A DNA stretch of 63,839 bases, filler included, from Myxococcota bacterium (lineage in GTDB: Bacteria; Myxococcota; Myxococcia; Myxococcales; Myxococcaceae): assembly GCA_049322255.1 (NCBI GenBank). It is 9 parts of 9 records of this genome, joined end to end, with 100 filler letters (N's around TTAATTAATTAA, not from the genome) between each part and the next. Parts side by side here need not be neighbours in the genome. Positions count along the whole stretch, not along the records: positions 43,826 to 50,784 come from JBMORE010000159.1; 8 more parts are not named here. One strand, 5' to 3'. Made by a program: the position numbers and the translations under genes. A model generated the notes under the pieces. That model was not told where the DNA came from, did no database searches, and worked only from the letters and a program-made list of their open reading frames with translations. Position 1 is the first letter of the stretch. Every line of letters begins with the position of its first letter. Below are positions 35,642 through 50,884 of this stretch, piece by piece.

Positions 35642-35914
35642 TCAACGTTGGCCGCGGCGCTTCTTAGAAACCTTGAGTCCCAGCTCTTTGCGGACTGCCG
35701 CGAGCGACACGGTCGGTCGTTTTCGGCGACGCTCGATGAGGGCCCAGAACTTGGGGTCCTGGGCGAGGAGAACATCCTCGAGGTCCTGGCCTTCGACGCC
35801 GATGACGACAGCCGCAGGCTTGCCGTGCTTGGTGATGAGCACACGCTCGTGCTGCGCTTCGTCGACGTACCCACTGAGCTGCTGCTTTGCCTCACGTAGA
35901 GCGACGACTTTCAT
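35642..35914 (-). CDS. Phd/YefM family antitoxin
   Basis: MKVVALREAKQQLS.YV....E.VLITKHGKPAAV; ATGA overlap with the toxin. Confidence 0.9.
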   Translation of the reverse strand: MKVVALREAKQQLSGYVDEAQHERVLITKHGKPAAVVIGVEGQDLEDVLLAQDPKFWALIERRRKRPTVSLAAVRKELGLKVSKKRRGQR

Positions 35915-36207
35915 AGAACCTCCTCGGTGGTCTTCTTCCCTTTGCGGCGAATGGCCCGGACGAGGACTTCCATCTCCTCGTCGTCGACGTCGTAGAAGAC
36001 GCGGTACTCGCCAACGCGTAGCTGCCAGACCGGCGAAACGTGATGCCAAGGTGGTACCAGGCCGGCGAGCTCTTTGCGGAGCTTGCTTGGCACGTGCGGC
36101 TCAGAGGAGAGCTTCTCCTCAATCTCGTCGAGAATCCTGGCTTGGTCAAACGGCCTGAGCATCTTGAGGTCCTCGAGCGCCTCGTCGGCGAAAACCACGG
36201 AGTACAT
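35911..36207 (-). CDS. RelE/ParE family toxin
   Basis: YSVVFADEALEDL, WQLRVGEYRVFYDV, VRAIRRK. Confidence 0.9.
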   Translation of the reverse strand: MYSVVFADEALEDLKMLRPFDQARILDEIEEKLSSEPHVPSKLRKELAGLVPPWHHVSPVWQLRVGEYRVFYDVDDEEMEVLVRAIRRKGKKTTEEVL

Positions 36208-36708: not shown

Positions 36709-38029
36709 AGAGGGTGGAGGAGGCGGCGGACTCGATGCCGCGGTGGAGGTCGACTCTGGTACTCCCGGCGATGATGGGGGAGGAGGCGGAGGTGGTGGTG
36801 GGGGAGGCGGAGGCGGAGGGCAGGACGCCGGAGTCGACCCCGGGGTCGAGCTGAATCCGGGGTGGATCGGCGGGGCGTGCACGAGTGCGGCGAGCTGCAA
36901 CAACCCCGACTTCTCCGCCACGCCCAGCTGTGTCACCAACGGGTTTCCCAACGGCATGTGCACGCAGAGCTGCACGGTGTCGGGCGCGGGCACATACGTC
37001 TGCCCCGACACGACTTACGGCGCCGGTACGCTCAACACCATCACCCGCTGCATCAGCGCTGCGGGCAGCCCCACCTGTGCCGCTGAGTGCGACTTCGGCC
37101 TGTCTCCCACCGGTTGCCGGCCGGGGTACACCTGTGTGCTGCGGCAGCGCTATAACCAGCCCTCGAGCATCTTCCGCGTTTGTCTGCCGACCGCCACCCA
37201 GCGTTGGCCGGGAGAGCCAGCGCCGGCCAACGACATTGGCCAAGCGTGCGCAGGAGACTCGACGTGCGCCCACCTGTCGTGCATGGCGATGAACAACGGG
37301 TACTGCACCAAGACGATGTGCCAGCACTCGGGTTGCCCTGCCGGATCGACCTGCTTCGGCATCGGCAACACGGGCAACACTGCTTGTCTCAAAGATTGTC
37401 TGGGCAACGCCGACTGCCGCACCAACGAGAGCTACCTGTGCCACTCGCAGTACAAGATTTGTTACCCGGGCACGACCAGCGCTTCCTGGAACCCGTCGGT
37501 AGGTACGGCCGATTGCGCCTCGGTCTGGGGTACCGCGGGCAGCGGGCTCTCGGTGTGCGACTCGGTGAAGGACAAGTACCTCGTCATCCGCAAGAGCGCG
37601 CGTAACGTGGCTTTGTGCAACCAGGGTGCCGTCGTCGCCAATTTCCGCGGCGGTTTGGGCTTCGCCCCCGTCGGCGACAAAGAGCGCGAGGGAGACGGCA
37701 GGACCCCGGAGGGCGTCTTCTACGTCGCCTCGCTCCTTCCCACCTCTGAGTACTACAAGGCGTTCCTCTTCAGCTACCCGGACAAGAGCGACGCGACGCG
37801 GGGGCTGTCACAAGGCCTCATCACCCAGTCGCAGAAGACCGCCATCGACACCGCACAGGACAACTGTGGGGTGCCGCCCCAGACGACCCAGCTAGGTGGC
37901 TACCTCGAGCTCCACGGCAACGGCGGCAGCTCGGACTGGACGCTCGGCTGCGTCGCCATCGCCGATACGGAGATCGACACCGTCTGGAGCAACATCTCCA
38001 CTCGGGACACCGTGGTCGTTTTCCCGTAG
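36709..38029 (+). CDS. Cys-rich repeat protein with C-terminal L,D-transpeptidase (YkuD) domain, 5' truncated
   Basis: Two IG.AC...C..G.CT repeats; GDKEREGDGRTPEG.FY, SYP...DA, ELHG...DWTLGC. Confidence 0.88.
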
Positions 38030-42622: not shown

Positions 42623-42696
<74 letters not shown>

Positions 42697-42701
42697 CTGG
42701 T

Positions 42702-42808: not shown

Positions 42809-43195
42809 GTGGTAGGCGGGGCGCGTGGCCATGAAGAGCAAGGAAACGGAGTACCGCCGCCGCTGGCGGTTGAGGGCGGCAATCGTCCGGTCAGGGACTT
42901 CCTCGACGGTCTGCCAGCCTCAGACGCTGCCGAAATCGTCGCTGAGATGAAGCAAGTTGCCAAGGTCGGTCTCGAAGCTTCCCGCCATCTTCGCGGCGAC
43001 ATCTGGGAAGTCCGGGTGCAGGGTGAGAACCGAATCTTCCGCGTGCTGTTCGCTCCGGAAGGCCGCTTCGGGCAGGTTCTGCTCGCCCTCGAGGCGTTCA
43101 CCAAGAAGACTCAGAAGACTCCGCCCGCCACCATCGCCGTCGCCGAGAAGCGGCTCTCCGATTGGAGAAGACGAGGAGCAACCGCCCAAAGGTGA
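42809..43195 (+). CDS. HigB/Gp49-like RelE-family toxin, N-terminus possibly frameshifted
   Basis: G.RPVRDFLDGL, HLRGDIWEVR, FRVLF, LEAFTKKTQKTP. Confidence 0.8.
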   Translation: MVGGARGHEEQGNGVPPPLAVEGGNRPVRDFLDGLPASDAAEIVAEMKQVAKVGLEASRHLRGDIWEVRVQGENRIFRVLFAPEGRFGQVLLALEAFTKKTQKTPPATIAVAEKRLSDWRRRGATAQR

Positions 43196-43293
43196 GGCTA
43201 AGCCGCAGGATGCCAAGCGGACGAAGCAAAGGCGCTAGCGCTAAAACGAGTTAGCGTATATGATATGACCACAAAGGTTTGGTGGAGGCAGCC

Positions 43294-43590
43294 ATGAGCA
43301 GCGAGCTGGACAAATACGTCGCGGAGCGAGAGGCCCGTGAGCCCGGCTTCGCCGCACTGGTCGAGGCTGCCGAGCAACGGCGGGCCTTCGCGCGAGAGAT
43401 GGCTGAGCGGCGAAAGAAGCATGGCCTCAGCCAGACGCAGGTTGCCGCCAAGATGAAGACCTCGCCATCCATCGTGAGCCGCATCGAGAGCGGCGGGGAC
43501 GTACGGCTCTCCACGCTCGAGAAGTACCTCGTCGCTCTCGGCTTCGAGCTGACGATGCAGGCGCGGAGGCTGCCGCACGGAGCCGGGTAA
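43294..43590 (+). CDS. HigA-like XRE HTH antitoxin
   Basis: GGAGG SD; RKKHGLSQTQVAAKM.TS.S.VSRIESG.D..LSTL. Confidence 0.9.
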   Translation: MSSELDKYVAEREAREPGFAALVEAAEQRRAFAREMAERRKKHGLSQTQVAAKMKTSPSIVSRIESGGDVRLSTLEKYLVALGFELTMQARRLPHGAG

Positions 43591-44027
43591 AGGCGGGGCG
43601 CCATCGGCGAGCTCGTACTGCGACGCTCTCAAGATTGACGTTCCGCGACTCGATGAGGAGGTCGGCCCTCGGGACGGGTAGTGACCGAGTTTGACGCGCC
43701 GCAAAGAGTGGGGTGACTGCGCGGGNNNNNNNNNNNNNNNNNNNNNNNNNNNNNNNNNNNNNNNNNNNNTTAATTAATTAANNNNNNNNNNNNNNNNNNN
43801 NNNNNNNNNNNNNNNNNNNNNNNNNGGCAACGCGGGACATGTGAAGCTCCTTGAGATGAGTGACTTGGACACTTCCATTGTCTTGGTGCGTCGCGCGGAG
43901 TTTCGCTGATCCAATGTAAAGCCGGTTGTCAAAAGATTCGCCGCGGAATCTGGATGTGCGGGCTGCGCCCCCTCTTGAAGCGACTCCGACTGGAGCCCGG
44001 CCAAGCATGAAACGAATTGCCCCTCGT

Positions 44028-44483
44028 TCAAAGCGTCAGCCGACGCTCCCAACGCCCGAGCGCCACGGCGAGCACTCGCCGGTTTCCGACGCGCCGGAAG
44101 GCCAGCGCCCATCTGCCGCGAGGTAGCAGGCCGCCGCGCGCGCGCTTCCAGCGCATGTCGACCTCGAGCAGCTCGGCCGCGACCGAGCCGGGCCATGCGT
44201 TCGCGGACAAGGAGTCGATGAAGGCACGGCCGTCGGCCAGCGGACCGCCCAACGCGGGAGGCGGATGAGCCGCGGCCCACGCAGAAAAGCGCGAAGCGAA
44301 GCCAGCGCCGAGAAAGGCCGCCAGGCGTGGCCAAGCTTGACGCGCTTCCCGCGCTCTCTTGCGCAGCAACATTCGCTCGGTCGCCTTCACCCGCGCCGCG
44401 TCCAGCCCGAGCGAAACGGGGCCACCTGCCACCAACGAATCGACGAGTGCCGCCTGCGCGCGCTGGAGCTCCTGGCGGGTCAC
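44028..44483 (-). CDS. Putative MNIO partner protein (DUF2063/RRE-like role)
   Basis: GTGA overlap with the DUF692 stop; QAALV.SLVAGGP, LLRKRAR...AWP.L...LG..F...F pattern. Confidence 0.7.
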   Translation of the reverse strand: MTRQELQRAQAALVDSLVAGGPVSLGLDAARVKATERMLLRKRAREARQAWPRLAAFLGAGFASRFSAWAAAHPPPALGGPLADGRAFIDSLSANAWPGSVAAELLEVDMRWKRARGGLLPRGRWALAFRRVGNRRVLAVALGRWERRLTL

Positions 44484-45304
44484 GCGGCGCTCCTCGTCGC
44501 GGCCGAAACAGCGCACACGATCGCGTCGAGCTCGGCATTCAGCTCATCGGCGGGCGGAAAATTCGCGTCGCGCTCGAGCATGAAGCCTCTCGCGCGCGGA
44601 CCTAGGTGCGCCAACAGATCGAGTGACCCCGAAGGCAAGGGGTGCGCGTGCGTGTCATGGTAGAGGCCGCCGCGCCGGGTGCCTCCCGCCAAATGGACGT
44701 ACGCGATGCGGCCCTGCGGTATGGCGTCGAGCCATTCATACCCGCTGAAGCCGCCGTTCAGGGCATTGGCGTAGAGGTTGGCGACGTCGACCAGCAGCCC
44801 GCAACCCGTCGCCGTCACCAGCTCGGAGAGAAACTCCGGCTCGTCCATTTCCGCGCCAGGCCACTCGATGAGGGAGGCGATGTTCTCGATGGCGAGCGGC
44901 ACCGGCAGCACCGCCTGCGCACGGCGAACGTTCTCCACCAGGGCCTCCAACGCTGGGGCGTTGCGCGGGAGCGGCAACAAATGCCCAGCCTCTTTTCCGC
45001 CCGCGCGCACGAAGGCGGCATGCTCGCTCACCAGACAGGCGCCCGTCGCTTCGGCGAGCCGGGCCAGGGCATCGAGGCGGCGCACATCGACCGGCTCCGC
45101 CCCCCCGAGAGAGAGCGAGAGACCATGAAGCACGACCTTCACGCCGCTGTGGGTGAGCCGCCGCACCGCGCAGGGCAAGGGATGTCGCGGGTCCAAGTTC
45201 TCGGCGACCAGCTCCACGAAGCTCAAGTCTTGACGAGCGTCGATGGTCCGCCCGAGCGCCGGACGCCAACCGATTCCCAAGCCCAACGACGGGAGCGCAT
45301 TCAC
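44480..45304 (-). CDS. DUF692 multinuclear non-haem iron oxidative enzyme (MNIO)
   Basis: GLGIGWR, ELVAEN, HGLSLSLGG, SEH, IENIA, DVANLY.N, HLAGG, HDTH, LERD metal-ligand motifs. Confidence 0.95.
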   Translation of the reverse strand: MNALPSLGLGIGWRPALGRTIDARQDLSFVELVAENLDPRHPLPCAVRRLTHSGVKVVLHGLSLSLGGAEPVDVRRLDALARLAEATGACLVSEHAAFVRAGGKEAGHLLPLPRNAPALEALVENVRRAQAVLPVPLAIENIASLIEWPGAEMDEPEFLSELVTATGCGLLVDVANLYANALNGGFSGYEWLDAIPQGRIAYVHLAGGTRRGGLYHDTHAHPLPSGSLDLLAHLGPRARGFMLERDANFPPADELNAELDAIVCAVSAATRSAA

Positions 45305-46179
45305 GAGCCGCACCCTCCGCAGCCACCTCCGCCACAGCCTCCGCCGCATGAGCTGCCGCAGCTGCTTCCGCACGAGCTGAAGCTTCCTGCGCCGCTGGAG
45401 GCGTGCGTCTTCTTCTGAAGCGCCAGCTGGAGATCCACCGGGAGCAGGGCGGCACCCCACAAGCCGACCGCGAGCGCTACATCGTTGGGGGCGAGGTTTT
45501 CCTCCGGGTCATACGCGGTGCTTCGGAGGGCGGCGTTCTTGTCTTGTAGCCGTGTGAAAACCACGTCTCCCGCGCGCGTGCGAAGCGGCGGCCGCCTGAA
45601 CACCATCAGCGCGGCAACGGCTGTTCCGACGACGAACAAAACCAGGAAGCTGACCGGCCGGTCGCGTGAGAGACCGACGGCGACCTTTGCCATCCCTAGA
45701 GCAGCAACCGCAAATACCAACCCCATCGGCAAGACCGTCGTGCGGCGGCGTGTGCTCCCGTCGAGAATGAGCCCCAGCTCGATCAGCTTTCCTTTCAACT
45801 GGGCGGCCTCGTCGATGGCGAACTGGCGGAATGCTCCTAAGCTCTCTTCCGTGGGGTGCAGCCCGGCCAGGACCGCCCGCTCCAGGGGATGAGCGCCTTG
45901 GGGGAGCTGCGCGACGGAGCCCGGCACAACCGACCCGGCGTATCCATCCACGCTCAGAAGTTGTTTGCGGATGAGCGCGCTCAGAACGGCGTCGGCGGCG
46001 CGCTCGGCGTCTCCTGCCAGGTACGCCACCTCATATGCGTCCAAGTCGTATGAGCGGGGAACGGGCATGCTCGGCACCCGCAGGAAAAACCGGAGGAAGG
46101 CTGCGGCGCCGAACGCGGTAACTGCTGCGAAAAGGTACAGCTGCAAAAACTCCGGGCCGCGAAGCTCAAGTGGATTCAT
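45301..46179 (-). CDS. TIGR04222-type membrane protein with Cys/Gly/Ser-rich C-terminal tail
   Basis: MNPLEL.GPEFL.LY start, LD.YEVAYLAG, GL.RDRPV.FLV, tail SSCGSSCGSSCGGGCGGGGCGGCGS. Confidence 0.9.
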   Translation of the reverse strand: MNPLELRGPEFLQLYLFAAVTAFGAAAFLRFFLRVPSMPVPRSYDLDAYEVAYLAGDAERAADAVLSALIRKQLLSVDGYAGSVVPGSVAQLPQGAHPLERAVLAGLHPTEESLGAFRQFAIDEAAQLKGKLIELGLILDGSTRRRTTVLPMGLVFAVAALGMAKVAVGLSRDRPVSFLVLFVVGTAVAALMVFRRPPLRTRAGDVVFTRLQDKNAALRSTAYDPEENLAPNDVALAVGLWGAALLPVDLQLALQKKTHASSGAGSFSSCGSSCGSSCGGGCGGGGCGGCGS

Positions 46180-46933
46180 CTCTCACCTCCACCGTTCGGG
46201 CAAGCGCGGCCGCGGCGGAGACCACCCCCAGGATTTTGGCGAACAGTACCGGCGGCTCGTTCTCCATCGGCTCTCCGGCCTTGAGTGCCGCCAATTGGGC
46301 GAGCGGCTCGGCCTCGAGCCCAAACCGTTTCGAGGCGGCCGCGAATACGGCTGCTGGCGCGTCGTCTGCCACTGCCGCCTCCCCGGCCACACGGAGCAGC
46401 ACACCGAGCTCGACCGAGAGTGGAGTGGCAATGTCCGACAGGGCGGAGAAGAGCCCCGCGGCGTCATCGCTGGTGCCGACGTACCGGCGCCGGAGCCGCA
46501 TGGCCAGATTGGTCAGCTCCATCTGCGCGCGAAGGCGAAGATGTGCCGGGGCCACCTTTGCCGAGGCGAACGGATTTTCACCGTAAAGCAATACCTGATG
46601 CTCCCGAAGCTCCAGCACCTTGGCGGGGAACAGATCGGCAATCGTCGCTACTTCGTGCTCGGCGACGATGAAGGGCTCGAGGCGAATCGCGCGGAACGCC
46701 GCGCGCAGAGCGGGGGCGATCGCGTCGAGGGTTGCGGGCGACGTAGATCGAAGGACGATGGCCACGTTGACGTCGCTCGCGTTGGGCCGATAACGCTTTC
46801 GGGCCACGCTTCCGTACAGAATGAGGGCGCGAAGCTCTTGCCCGGCGTGCGACCTCAGAGAGGCGCGCAGGGCCTCAAGGGCCACCGACACACGCGGCGG
46901 CAAGTCGAGGGGAATCAGAGCGTCGAAGGGCAT
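46166..46933 (-). CDS. Pol-beta-like nucleotidyltransferase-domain protein
   Basis: ILYGSVAR...SDVNVAIVL, D.FP, VLLYGE.PF; overlaps the TIGR04222 start by 14 nt. Confidence 0.75.
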   Translation of the reverse strand: MPFDALIPLDLPPRVSVALEALRASLRSHAGQELRALILYGSVARKRYRPNASDVNVAIVLRSTSPATLDAIAPALRAAFRAIRLEPFIVAEHEVATIADLFPAKVLELREHQVLLYGENPFASAKVAPAHLRLRAQMELTNLAMRLRRRYVGTSDDAAGLFSALSDIATPLSVELGVLLRVAGEAAVADDAPAAVFAAASKRFGLEAEPLAQLAALKAGEPMENEPPVLFAKILGVVSAAAALARTVEVRDEST

Positions 46934-47029
46934 GAGAAACCTCGCACGGAAGGGTACGGGCGCGCGGTGTCGGCCCGGTAACAGCGGAGTGAATTCGCGG
47001 TGAGCTCGATGTTGGCGCGGTGCGGCGTT

Positions 47030-47883
47030 CTACGCGCGGACGCCGGAAACCACCCAGGTCACCCCGGGCAGCTCGAGCGGACCATCGGTTTTCAACCCGG
47101 CGTAGGCGGTACGAATCTCGTCCTCCACCGCCGAGCGCCCTTGGGGAGCGACGGAGCCGAGCATCGTCGCCACCGGACCAGCGAGCTCGGAGATGAAGGT
47201 GAAGGCATGCGCGACCGACTCGAAGGGGCCCCAGCGCACCTGCTGCTCGACGACCTGCACGTCTCGAAAGCCCGCCTCTTCGACGACCGACGTCAGCCGC
47301 TTGGGGTCGGCGAAGGCGAAGATGCCGGGCGCTCCGGGCGGAGGCGCGGGCAGCTCGAGCTTCTTGCGCAGAATTCCCGCCGGCAATGAGGCCCAGGGGT
47401 TGCGGGGCGGCTCCGCCCAGCACGCGGCGGCGATTCGCCCACCCTTTTTGAGAGACGTCAGGCAACGGCGAAGACAAGCCAGCGGGTCGGGCATGAACAT
47501 CAAGCCCCAGCGAATGGTGACCGCGTCGAAGTGGCTCGCGGGGACATCGAGCGCTTCGCCGTCGACGCACTGGAACACCACGTTCCCGACGCCCTTCCGC
47601 TTCGCCTTCTCGCGTGCGAAGGCCAGCATCGGCTCGACGAAGTCAGTCGCCAGCACCGACCCTTTGGGGCCCACGCGGGAGCCAATGGCCAGCGCCGGCT
47701 CTCCCGTCCCTGAGGCGATGTCCAACACCTGCTGCCCCTCGCCAATCGCCGCCAGCTCCAGCATGCGAGTGGAGACCGGCTGCGCGCAGCGCGTCAGCAC
47801 CTCGTCCCACTTCGCCCATCCCGGGGCGACCTTGGTCCAGCTCGTTTGCTCTTTCTGTTTCTGCTCGGTGGTGGATGTCGTCG

Positions 47884-47887
<4 letters not shown>
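47030..47887 (-). CDS. Class I SAM-dependent methyltransferase (UbiE-like)
   Basis: VLDIASGTG, TDF...ML, FDAV..RWGLMF, LKKGGRI; ATGA overlap with the ileS stop. Confidence 0.92.
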
Positions 47888-50727
<2,840 letters not shown>

Positions 50728-50884
50728 GACGAGAAGGGGCCGTAGCACCGCGGCCCTGTGCTTTCAACGAGTGCCCGCGCTGCTNNNNNNNNNNNNNNNN
50801 NNNNNNNNNNNNNNNNNNNNNNNNNNNNTTAATTAATTAANNNNNNNNNNNNNNNNNNNNNNNNNNNNNNNNNNNNNNNNNNNN

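Follow-up and report, generated by a model that had tools for sequence, protein, structure and literature searches.

The window, by which we mean the whole 63,839-nucleotide stretch of DNA analysed, is a chain of contigs from a Myxococcota bacterium joined end to end. On one of these contigs (window positions 43826-50784), and confined to it, lies an operon of four minus-strand ORFs encoding an NTase-fold protein, a TIGR04222 membrane protein, an MNIO of the DUF692 family and a small MNIO partner. The genes and their features are as follows:

46166..46933, minus strand: NTase-fold protein, 255 aa, a pol-beta-like domain plus a helical bundle (AadA/KNTase architecture)
within 46166..46933, minus strand: NTase-fold motif G41-S42...S53-D54-x-N56, with Asn at the second catalytic Asp
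45301..46179, minus strand: TIGR04222 membrane protein, 292 aa, a DUF2207_C homologue with three predicted TM helices, a GOLPH3/GPP34-like soluble domain and a disordered tail
46087..46149, minus strand: predicted TM1 (residues 11-31 of the membrane protein), N-out/C-in from charge bias
45595..45732, minus strand: predicted hairpin of TM2 and TM3 (residues 150-195), its loop 7 residues long
45415..45489, minus strand: H4 (residues 231-255), marginally hydrophobic, short broken helices in the model, inside the GOLPH3-aligned range
45304..45378, minus strand: Cys/Gly/Ser tail (residues 268-292) with six Cys-Gly pairs, the predicted substrate
44480..45304, minus strand: MNIO (DUF692/PF05114), 274 aa counted from the GTG of the overlap
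44028..44483, minus strand: MNIO partner, 151 aa, SCO6045_C (PF26136)-like and related to DUF2063 (PME-type 2), of insufficient length for a full RRE domain

The ORF coordinates and family calls agree with the preliminary description of four overlapping minus-strand genes. GTGA overlaps join the membrane-protein gene to the MNIO gene (45301-45304) and the MNIO gene to the partner gene (44480-44483), while the NTase-fold gene and the membrane-protein gene overlap by 14 nt. An NCBIfam profile search scored the TIGR04222 call at 133.3 bits (cut-off 43), and the PF05114 call for the MNIO reached 248.1 bits (gathering cut-off 25). We found no promoter-like sites, and terminator-like sites did not exceed the chance level. 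The contig ends 202 nt past the partner gene, with genes further downstream lying off it. A methyltransferase gene upstream (47030-47881) was considered as a tailoring enzyme and rejected, having matched solely the window's own loci among the 308 scanned.

The membrane protein ends in SSCGSSCGSSCGGGCGGGGCGGCGS. Each of the Cys residues in this tail (270, 274, 278, 282, 287 and 290) is followed by Gly, and the protein contains no further Cys. A filter for Cys/Gly/Ser tails, run over the genome's 61,712 stop-to-stop ORFs, retained just four; the three besides this gene are short Ser/Arg-rich frames of 76-95 aa, and from this rarity we judge a chance origin of the tail to be out. Across homologues, Gly follows Cys at 82% of 480 tail positions compared with 55% in shuffles, a value that none of 1000 shuffles attained, bearing in mind that related sequences are not independent. 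A preference for the Cys-Gly dyad has been described for FonBC (PMC13097082). The tail stops exactly two residues past the last Cys in 61 of 97 homologues and terminates in Gly-Gly in 65 of 97. TGA is the stop codon of 88 of 96 tail genes; selenocysteine read-through was nevertheless rejected, no further Cys-Gly repeat lying beyond the TGA in the five tails followed up.

The earlier reading that no separate short precursor is present holds for this region: all 14 short ORFs with at least two Cys represent another frame or strand of the four genes, and no free-standing precursor ORF was found. The contig end does leave room for a downstream substrate, which would suit a rival explanation in which a DUF2207/TPM-like envelope protein uses its Cys-rich tail unmodified, for plain metal or redox purposes, while the MNIO has another substrate or is a passenger. 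DUF2207 and TPM proteins indeed have similar Gly-rich tails without Cys. We nevertheless regard this explanation as improbable, and the linkage of the genes over several phyla, with no other recurrent gene, argues against it. A TIGR04222 gene lies directly upstream of the MNIO gene at 73 of 74 scorable MNIO-anchored loci, and the partner gene lies downstream at 80 of 80. At least two Cys occur in the last 40 residues of 70 of 71 adjacent TIGR04222 genes; homologous operons thus seldom lack the Cys tail, a frequent lack of which had been named beforehand as grounds for abandoning the tail as substrate. The survey of neighbours took in ORFs of at least 70 aa and revealed neither a recurrent metal-related neighbour across phyla nor a recurrent protease or transporter; recurrent neighbours beyond the four families were traced to close kin or opposite-frame ORFs.

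The operon is a member of the predicted, uncharacterised TIGR04222-MNIO-PME-type 2 class. Antoine et al. (Microb Genom 2025; PMC12452194) had already proposed in silico that the TIGR04222 tail is an MNIO substrate, in keeping with the statement of the preliminary description that this association had been noted bioinformatically. Gene order, the Ser/Gly/Cys tail, the short DUF2063-related partner and the absence of a Sec-signal precursor are all shared with the class set out there. The paper also reports that one third of TIGR04222 genomes have no MNIOs and that over a quarter of TIGR04222 proteins have no C-proximal Cys; the main text and two supplements mention no nucleotidyltransferase, DUF2207 or SPASM, and no radical SAM beside TIGR04222. 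Our literature searches found neither a biochemical test of a TIGR04222 tail as MNIO substrate nor a paper on DUF692 with a glycine-rich membrane protein.

The MNIO has its active-site positions intact. Residues H60, H95, E140, D173, N176, H204, D217, H219, E244 and D246, which by position we take to be the iron-ligand positions and the catalytic Asp, are invariant in 56 of 56 aligned MNIOs, including the genome's two BufB-type paralogues. Both of these further MNIOs score above the cut-off for BufB, and a short ORF containing Cys lies upstream of each. The window's enzyme is closest to BufB (186.1 bits, cut-off 310) and then to HvfB (151.7 bits, cut-off 360), with weaker matches to ApyH (90 bits), MbnB (46) and ChrH (40). 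Since none of the MNIO equivalog cut-offs in NCBIfam was reached, its chemistry may differ. This fact, along with TglH being its second-best solved relative (148 bits) and the uniform ends of many tails, would fit a second rival explanation, to which we give little credence: that the MNIO does act on the tail, though by carbon excision, cleavage or cross-linking, that a small product may be freed, and that the NTase-fold protein activates the C-terminus. The lack of a recurrent protease or transporter among neighbouring ORFs of at least 70 aa speaks against it. The enzyme also keeps the E-R-D motif, which is common to MbnB and absent from TglH.

Bufferins and captophorins (BufABC, FonABC, HvfABC) resemble the window's system in having the nearest MNIO families, the Cys-Gly preference, the E-R-D motif and a partner encoded after the enzyme. 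By contrast, the window's system has no Sec signal or small precursor, its enzyme stays under the family cut-offs, and its candidate substrate is a 292-residue polytopic membrane protein. The partners differ as well: theirs is a DUF2063-RRE protein (PME-type 1) of about 250-260 aa, whereas the window's 151-residue partner has no full RRE. It matched no Pfam or NCBIfam family in the libraries searched, DUF2063 and HvfC included, and a PDB sequence search with its profile gave nothing significant. An Atlas search identified it as SCO6045_C-like, with TM scores of 0.60-0.64 to DUF2063 clusters, and at profile level the two BufB-type partners in the genome matched it weakly (probability 25% and 3%). 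SCO6045 itself has a single entry (3-fold) in a table of a Streptomyces redox regulon (PMC4991794), too slight a hint to build on.

Further insight into the chemistry comes from six homologous loci without an adjacent MNIO, in which a radical SAM/SPASM gene stands next to the gene with the Cys tail or next to that gene's NTase partner. The best NCBIfam match of these swapped enzymes is SbtM in five cases and the ACGX-system in one. They align to SbtM profile positions 197-516 only; one passes the SbtM cut-off (415 versus 350), while the other five fall under it, with haem-synthesis families scoring not far behind. Three of the four genomes among these loci have no PF05114 match. Conversely, among 173 MNIO-containing loci (of 308 scanned, overlapping loci counted) a single one has a radical SAM match, which is weak, partial and 2.4 kb off. 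SbtM turns Cys into thiooxazole (PMC11002830), and the SbtM-like swap supports a Cys-to-thiooxazole chemistry, counter to carbon excision, cleavage or cross-linking. The SbtM thio(seleno)oxazole system (TIGR04082) is itself absent from this window.

That two unrelated enzyme families turn up in one and the same slot, and hardly ever together, argues against a passenger MNIO. Both families have Cys-modifying members, which together with the Cys-Gly bias also tells against an unmodified tail. On the other side, four Cys-tailed genes (L099, L116, L108 and G344) have neither enzyme nearby in the DNA covered, and for G344 neither PF05114 across the genome nor radical SAM across 13 kb gave a match.

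The likely role of the tail depends on which side of the membrane it occupies. Profile-profile comparison matched residues 27-215, the soluble domain and TM hairpin, to DUF2207 (probability 95.6%, E 1.2e-8), the matched part being that which comes after a signal-like N-terminus, a large N-terminal domain and the first TM helix. Of 97 homologues, 21 match PF20990 at E<=0.01, the best of them at 4e-7, and the membrane protein of this operon is not one of them. Residues 41-259 of the model align with soluble GOLPH3 over 165 residues (Z 7.9, rmsd 6.0), a Z in the range that the tool calls common; other readings of a GOLPH3/GPP34 fold are a second Z of 7.2 with an rmsd of about 6, a profile probability of 53% and a Pfam match in 2 of 97 homologues. 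Searches with the membrane protein otherwise gave just generic three-helix bundles over residues 1-216 (a wide VIA structure search), no match at E<=0.001 (Foldseek with the model), and low-complexity and weak HTH matches only (a PDB sequence search with the profile). K/R residues are in excess after rather than before TM1 in 89 of 97 homologues, with the reverse in none. Charge bias, DUF2207_C homology and the GOLPH3-like domain make a cytoplasmic tail more likely than a periplasmic one, and point to a topology contrary to the periplasmic domains and tail predicted in PMC12452194. A periplasmic tail had been listed in the preliminary description as telling against modification; the charge bias and homology favour the cytoplasm, with H4 marginal.

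Which side the tail is on hinges on whether H4 spans the membrane. If H4 were a fourth TM helix, the same chemistry could operate on the tail before export, leaving a tethered, bufferin-like copper sponge in the periplasm. The Sec signals on bufferin-type precursors and the periplasmic exposure predicted by Antoine et al. (PMC12452194) would agree with this, as would the hydropathy of H4 (1.7 in the query) and the four hydrophobic segments that a simple threshold finds in 55 of 97 homologues. We consider this arrangement unlikely. In the model, H4 breaks up into two helices, 11 and 8 residues long, inside the GOLPH3-aligned range; its median insertion score is +1.3, compared with -1.0 to -3.4 for TM1-3, on an insertion scale that puts H4 below 0 in 18 of 97 homologues. 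H4 also shows no charge bias (29 versus 33) and contains Pro-Asp in actinobacterial homologues, and the large domain placed outside in that prediction conflicts with the charge bias of TM1.

The preliminary idea that the tail is the MNIO substrate is well supported, if indirectly, by co-occurrence, the Cys-Gly bias, the intact active-site positions and the SbtM-like swap; the modification itself, its product and its metal role we infer. In our favoured model, to which we would give an even chance as a whole, the MNIO and its partner oxidise the tail of a three-helix membrane protein to 5-thiooxazoles, forming a cytoplasmic metal patch. The protein would insert N-out, with TM1 followed by the cytoplasmic GOLPH3-like domain, the TM hairpin and the cytoplasmic tail. 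As a full RRE would not fit into so short a partner, and a leader peptide is absent, the MNIO-partner complex would recognise the folded domain or the tail itself. The O2-dependent reaction would remove 4 Da per Cys, up to 24 Da, and give rise to absorbance near 305 nm. The six Cys-Gly pairs, once converted to 5-thiooxazole rings, could make a membrane-tethered patch binding a soft metal, probably copper, a role suggested by analogy with bufferins and captophorins. In other lineages the SbtM-like radical SAM enzyme might do the same job without O2, and the swap predicts the loss of 4 Da per Cys and the 305 nm band with either enzyme. All characterised MNIO substrates in the literature covered are peptides or small exported proteins. 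A modified integral membrane protein would thus take RiPP chemistry into membrane proteins and answer a question that PMC12452194 leaves open. Read as cytoplasmic, the tail would more likely belong to an element bound to the membrane on the inner side than to a copper sponge in the periplasm.

The NTase-fold protein fits less readily into a tailoring pathway. Pol-beta nucleotidyltransferases carry the metal-binding motif G[GS]...D-x-[DE], from which the window's protein departs with D-x-N; Asn likewise replaces the second catalytic Asp in 57 of 60 TIGR04222-linked members. Its NTP_transf_2 match falls below the cut-off, while its model (pLDDT 94.7) matches AadA/ANT/KNTase structures (Foldseek E about 1e-5, TM about 0.5-0.57). 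The two-domain architecture is that of AadA, ANT and kanamycin nucleotidyltransferase, but identity to these is 10-18% and nothing hints at a resistance gene; aminoglycoside resistance was rejected on the altered motif and the lack of an NCBIfam ANT match, and an MntA antitoxin on the altered motif and a score of 21 bits (cut-off 60). The conserved pocket (G41, S53, D54, K105, R135, N142, R146 and R148) would be in keeping with activation of the C-terminus, as the second rival explanation has it. Against this stand the Asp-to-Asn change, the presence of the gene at just 6 of 71 scorable MNIO-anchored loci, and a sister clade, grouped by a quick tree, which has a more decayed active site and serves LemA-TPM operons with Gly-rich, Cys-free tails. 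The NTase-fold gene tracks the membrane protein, not the MNIO, a tie that the preliminary description had not noticed. A predicted complex of the two proteins scored 0.07 (mark 0.32), which speaks neither for nor against their pairing. Within the thiooxazole model the NTase-fold protein, which LemA-TPM operons share, would accompany the membrane protein as an optional adaptor or nucleotide binder and would not be the tailoring enzyme.

More tentatively, and in our view less likely than not, a LemA/TPM/DUF2207-type envelope module may have gained Cys in its Gly-rich tail and recruited maturases of two unrelated types, an O2-dependent MNIO or an O2-independent SbtM-like radical SAM enzyme, which would converge on the same thiooxazole ring. 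An integral membrane protein would then carry RiPP-type heterocycles on its cytoplasmic face, as a metal-sensing or metal-buffering switch with a pseudo-nucleotidyltransferase adaptor as reader. Our searches found no paper on operons joining LemA, a TPM domain and a nucleotidyltransferase, and profiles built for the search found no LemA or TPM in this genome. Through its tie to LemA-TPM and LemA-DUF2207 operons, the operon gives a way into those widespread, poorly understood systems. The window's operon shares with LemA-TPM-NTase-like and LemA-DUF2207 operons the NTase-fold family, the DUF2207_C membrane domain and a Gly-rich C-terminal tail, whereas their tails are Cys-free and mostly aromatic-ended and their loci carry LemA.

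The operon truly belongs to a class that Antoine et al. predicted in 2025 (PMC12452194). In that paper, more than 3,500 TIGR04222 proteins are described, their Cys-rich tail is put forward as the MNIO substrate and predicted to be periplasmic, the short partners are named PME-type 2, and the modification and role are left for future investigation. The preliminary description knew of the TIGR04222/DUF692 association from bioinformatics and of no characterised product. The literature searched, including text and two supplements of PMC12452194, yielded no experimental test of the class and no mention of the four-gene form, a radical SAM swap, a DUF2207/GOLPH3 relationship or a cytoplasmic topology, and titles and abstract openings of part of the MNIO literature from 2025 on gave no membrane-protein substrate. 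The window's sequence bears out the first description: all four genes are there, as are the two GTGA overlaps and the Cys tail. The operon's contig, C159 (window 43826-50784, 6,959 nt), ends 202 nt beyond the partner gene; the window strings together separate contigs by way of N-flanked linkers (N runs within 7424-57859), so that genes across a linker are not true neighbours. Two genes lie upstream of the operon on the same strand:

47030-47881, minus strand, class I methyltransferase, UbiE-like
47884-50748, minus strand, ileS

The methyltransferase was rejected as a system component, having no match outside the window's own loci among 308 loci scanned and not being kept with the cassette.

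Gene linkage was scored in the best 80 of 93 confirmed MNIO loci, a kin-rich sample (many Amycolatopsis and Myxococcus kin) whose counts, like those of the other linkage samples, are not independent: TIGR04222 lies upstream of the MNIO in 73 of the 74 loci with enough DNA, the partner downstream in 80/80, and an NTase-fold gene is present in 6/71. At least two Cys occur in the last 40 residues of 70 of 71 MNIO-adjacent membrane proteins in this set, versus 31 of 45 non-adjacent or frameshifted ORFs; the frequent loss of the Cys tail from homologous operons, which would have spoken against the original proposal, was not found. TIGR04222 genes above cut-off numbered 14 among 201 genomes from the phylum of the comparison genome G251 (MNIO adjacent in 10, radical SAM in two, contig end in one, neither in one), and 250 further genomes of the window's phylum gave 21 matches, with an MNIO within 1.5 kb in 18 and 4.3 kb off in one, and a radical SAM enzyme in two. 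In some actinobacterial and myxobacterial loci (L018, L025, L051, L071, L078 and L306-L310), one MNIO is preceded by two to four TIGR04222 genes in tandem, some copies of which lack the Cys tail. Amycolatopsis-group loci (e.g. L056:3185-3724 and L057:7512-8468) share two recurrent neighbour genes, in 29 and 26 loci, which we take to resemble MsrB and HemQ; their recurrence is probably synteny shared by kin. The window's genome (99.6% complete) holds one TIGR04222 gene and three MNIOs. The remaining two MNIO clusters (L081:1091-3101 and L082:1-1903, on contigs C8 and C192) exceed the BufB cut-off (391 and 314 vs 310), each with an HvfC-like partner and one short Cys-containing ORF upstream, that of L081 with six Cys after a signal-like start. 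Of the genome's three MNIOs, only the operon's thus lacks a small precursor.

In six loci (G162, G305, G341, G126, L161 and L175), a radical SAM/SPASM gene lies beside the Cys-tailed gene, or beside the NTase-fold gene coupled to it, without an adjacent MNIO; the G341 locus is split over two contigs within the NTase-fold gene, and the G126 membrane gene has one internal stop. PF05114 had no match in the genomes G162 (98% complete), G305 and G341 and one in G126, away from the radical SAM locus, and a radical SAM gene appeared in one of 173 MNIO-containing loci, as a weak partial match 2.4 kb distant. The top NCBIfam match was SbtM for five of the six enzymes and an ACGX-system enzyme for the other. 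SbtM is reported to take four hydrogens off Cys, which yields a thiooxazole (PMC11002830); bufferin-type MNIOs are reported to form this ring too (PMC13097082). Two unrelated enzyme families, both known for this product, occupy one gene slot, the strongest indirect support for the tail as substrate and for thiooxazole chemistry. This argument is weakened because five of the six enzymes fall below the SbtM cut-off, which the L161 enzyme passes, and four tailed genes (L099, L116, L108 and G344) whose retrieved surroundings contain neither enzyme count against it. At L302:1462-2247, a TIGR04222 gene with one internal TAG, which may reflect a pseudogene, an assembly error or read-through, is directly followed by an SbtM-like radical SAM gene.

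The last 40 residues hold 2-8 Cys in 97 aligned TIGR04222 proteins (chosen from 115 non-redundant proteins plus the query); of 480 tail Cys, 82% have Gly as the next residue and 56% as the preceding one, against 55% in shuffles. FonBC is reported to prefer Cys-Gly and to reject a charged residue after Cys, and FonB to need Asp249 for thiooxazole formation (PMC13097082). The operon's MNIO scores highest against BufB and HvfB, reaching no equivalog cut-off; 56/56 aligned MNIOs keep the same ten acidic, His and Asn residues, and its E-R-D motif (244-246) is common to MbnB and absent from TglH. By its position, D246 would be the equivalent of FonB Asp249. The partner is SCO6045_C-like, its predicted structure resembles DUF2063 proteins (TM 0.60-0.64), and one Atlas cluster holds fusions of its family with MNIOs. 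In our own judgement, modification of the tail by the MNIO is likely, a thiooxazole would, given modification, be the probable product, and metal handling is a tentative role, somewhat short of an even chance.

PMC12452194 predicts a periplasmic tail for the class, whereas we favour the cytoplasm for the operon's protein, a fairly likely placement for which H4 (residues 231-255) is the deciding point. In the membrane-protein model (pLDDT 88.6), residues 8-33, 141-171 and 177-194 form long helices, the tail being disordered. The K/R bias around TM1 (residues 11-31) places the following segment inside in 89 of 97 homologues and is reversed in none, with roughly 16 K/R in the 118-residue loop. 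Pfam matches among these homologues were DUF2207_C (21) and GPP34 (2). A profile of nine DUF2207 proteins, with a Gly-rich C-terminal tail in eight and LemA adjoining in eight, aligned with residues 27-215 (95.6% probability). In most of the nine, the first TM helix is preceded by a large domain and, at the start of the protein, a signal-like segment; since the alignment covers the region after these, the shared domain should be cytoplasmic. H4 is marginally hydrophobic on an insertion scale and modelled as short broken helices, and an alignment with soluble GOLPH3 spans residues 41-259, H4 included, at a modest score (Z 7.9).

The least certain part of our reading is that the NTase-fold protein optionally accompanies tailed membrane proteins. 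Its predicted fold is that of AadA/ANT/KNTase, and its family is large (1,158 clusters at E<=1e-30). In the best 80 of 106 metagenome loci found with an NTase-fold alignment, TIGR04222 adjoins the gene in 64 of 65 scorable loci, and an MNIO or partner is present in 25/31. The phylum of G251 (121 genomes) and L187 together gave 30 loci, one unpublished-genome locus being excluded; all 26 strong matches among them adjoin either TIGR04222 (7) or a Gly-rich-tailed TPM-domain protein (19, with LemA visible in 17), and four short weak matches have neither alongside; the window's phylum added one LemA-TPM locus with an NTase-fold gene. A quick midpoint-rooted tree (83 rows) separates the 20 TPM-linked proteins from the rest by a single branch (SH-aLRT 99). 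The NTase-fold proteins of LemA-TPM operons (L179:2441-4370; L187-L211) differ as a sister clade with a decayed catalytic motif (D54 kept in 11/20 rows) and an invariant F/Y-P-x-E-type patch; our literature searches found no paper on this trio. Asn replaces the second catalytic Asp in 57 of 60 TIGR04222-linked rows, and the NTase-fold protein is probably not a classical transferase. In two genomes (L177:4267-5124 and L178:4604-5434), the ORF coupled to an NTase-fold gene of differing motif (D-x-D in L178) resembles a membrane protein but lacks both a Cys tail and a family match; their close relative L182 has a Ser/Cys tail and an MNIO.

Elsewhere in the window, a tRNA-Arg(CCG) (42623-42697) lies beside two small ORFs (42809-43195 and 43279-43590) that by eye resemble a RelE/HTH toxin-antitoxin pair, a second such pair appears at 35642-36207, and 36743-38029, starting at a contig edge, encodes a Cys-rich repeat protein ending, also by eye, in an apparent L,D-transpeptidase domain.
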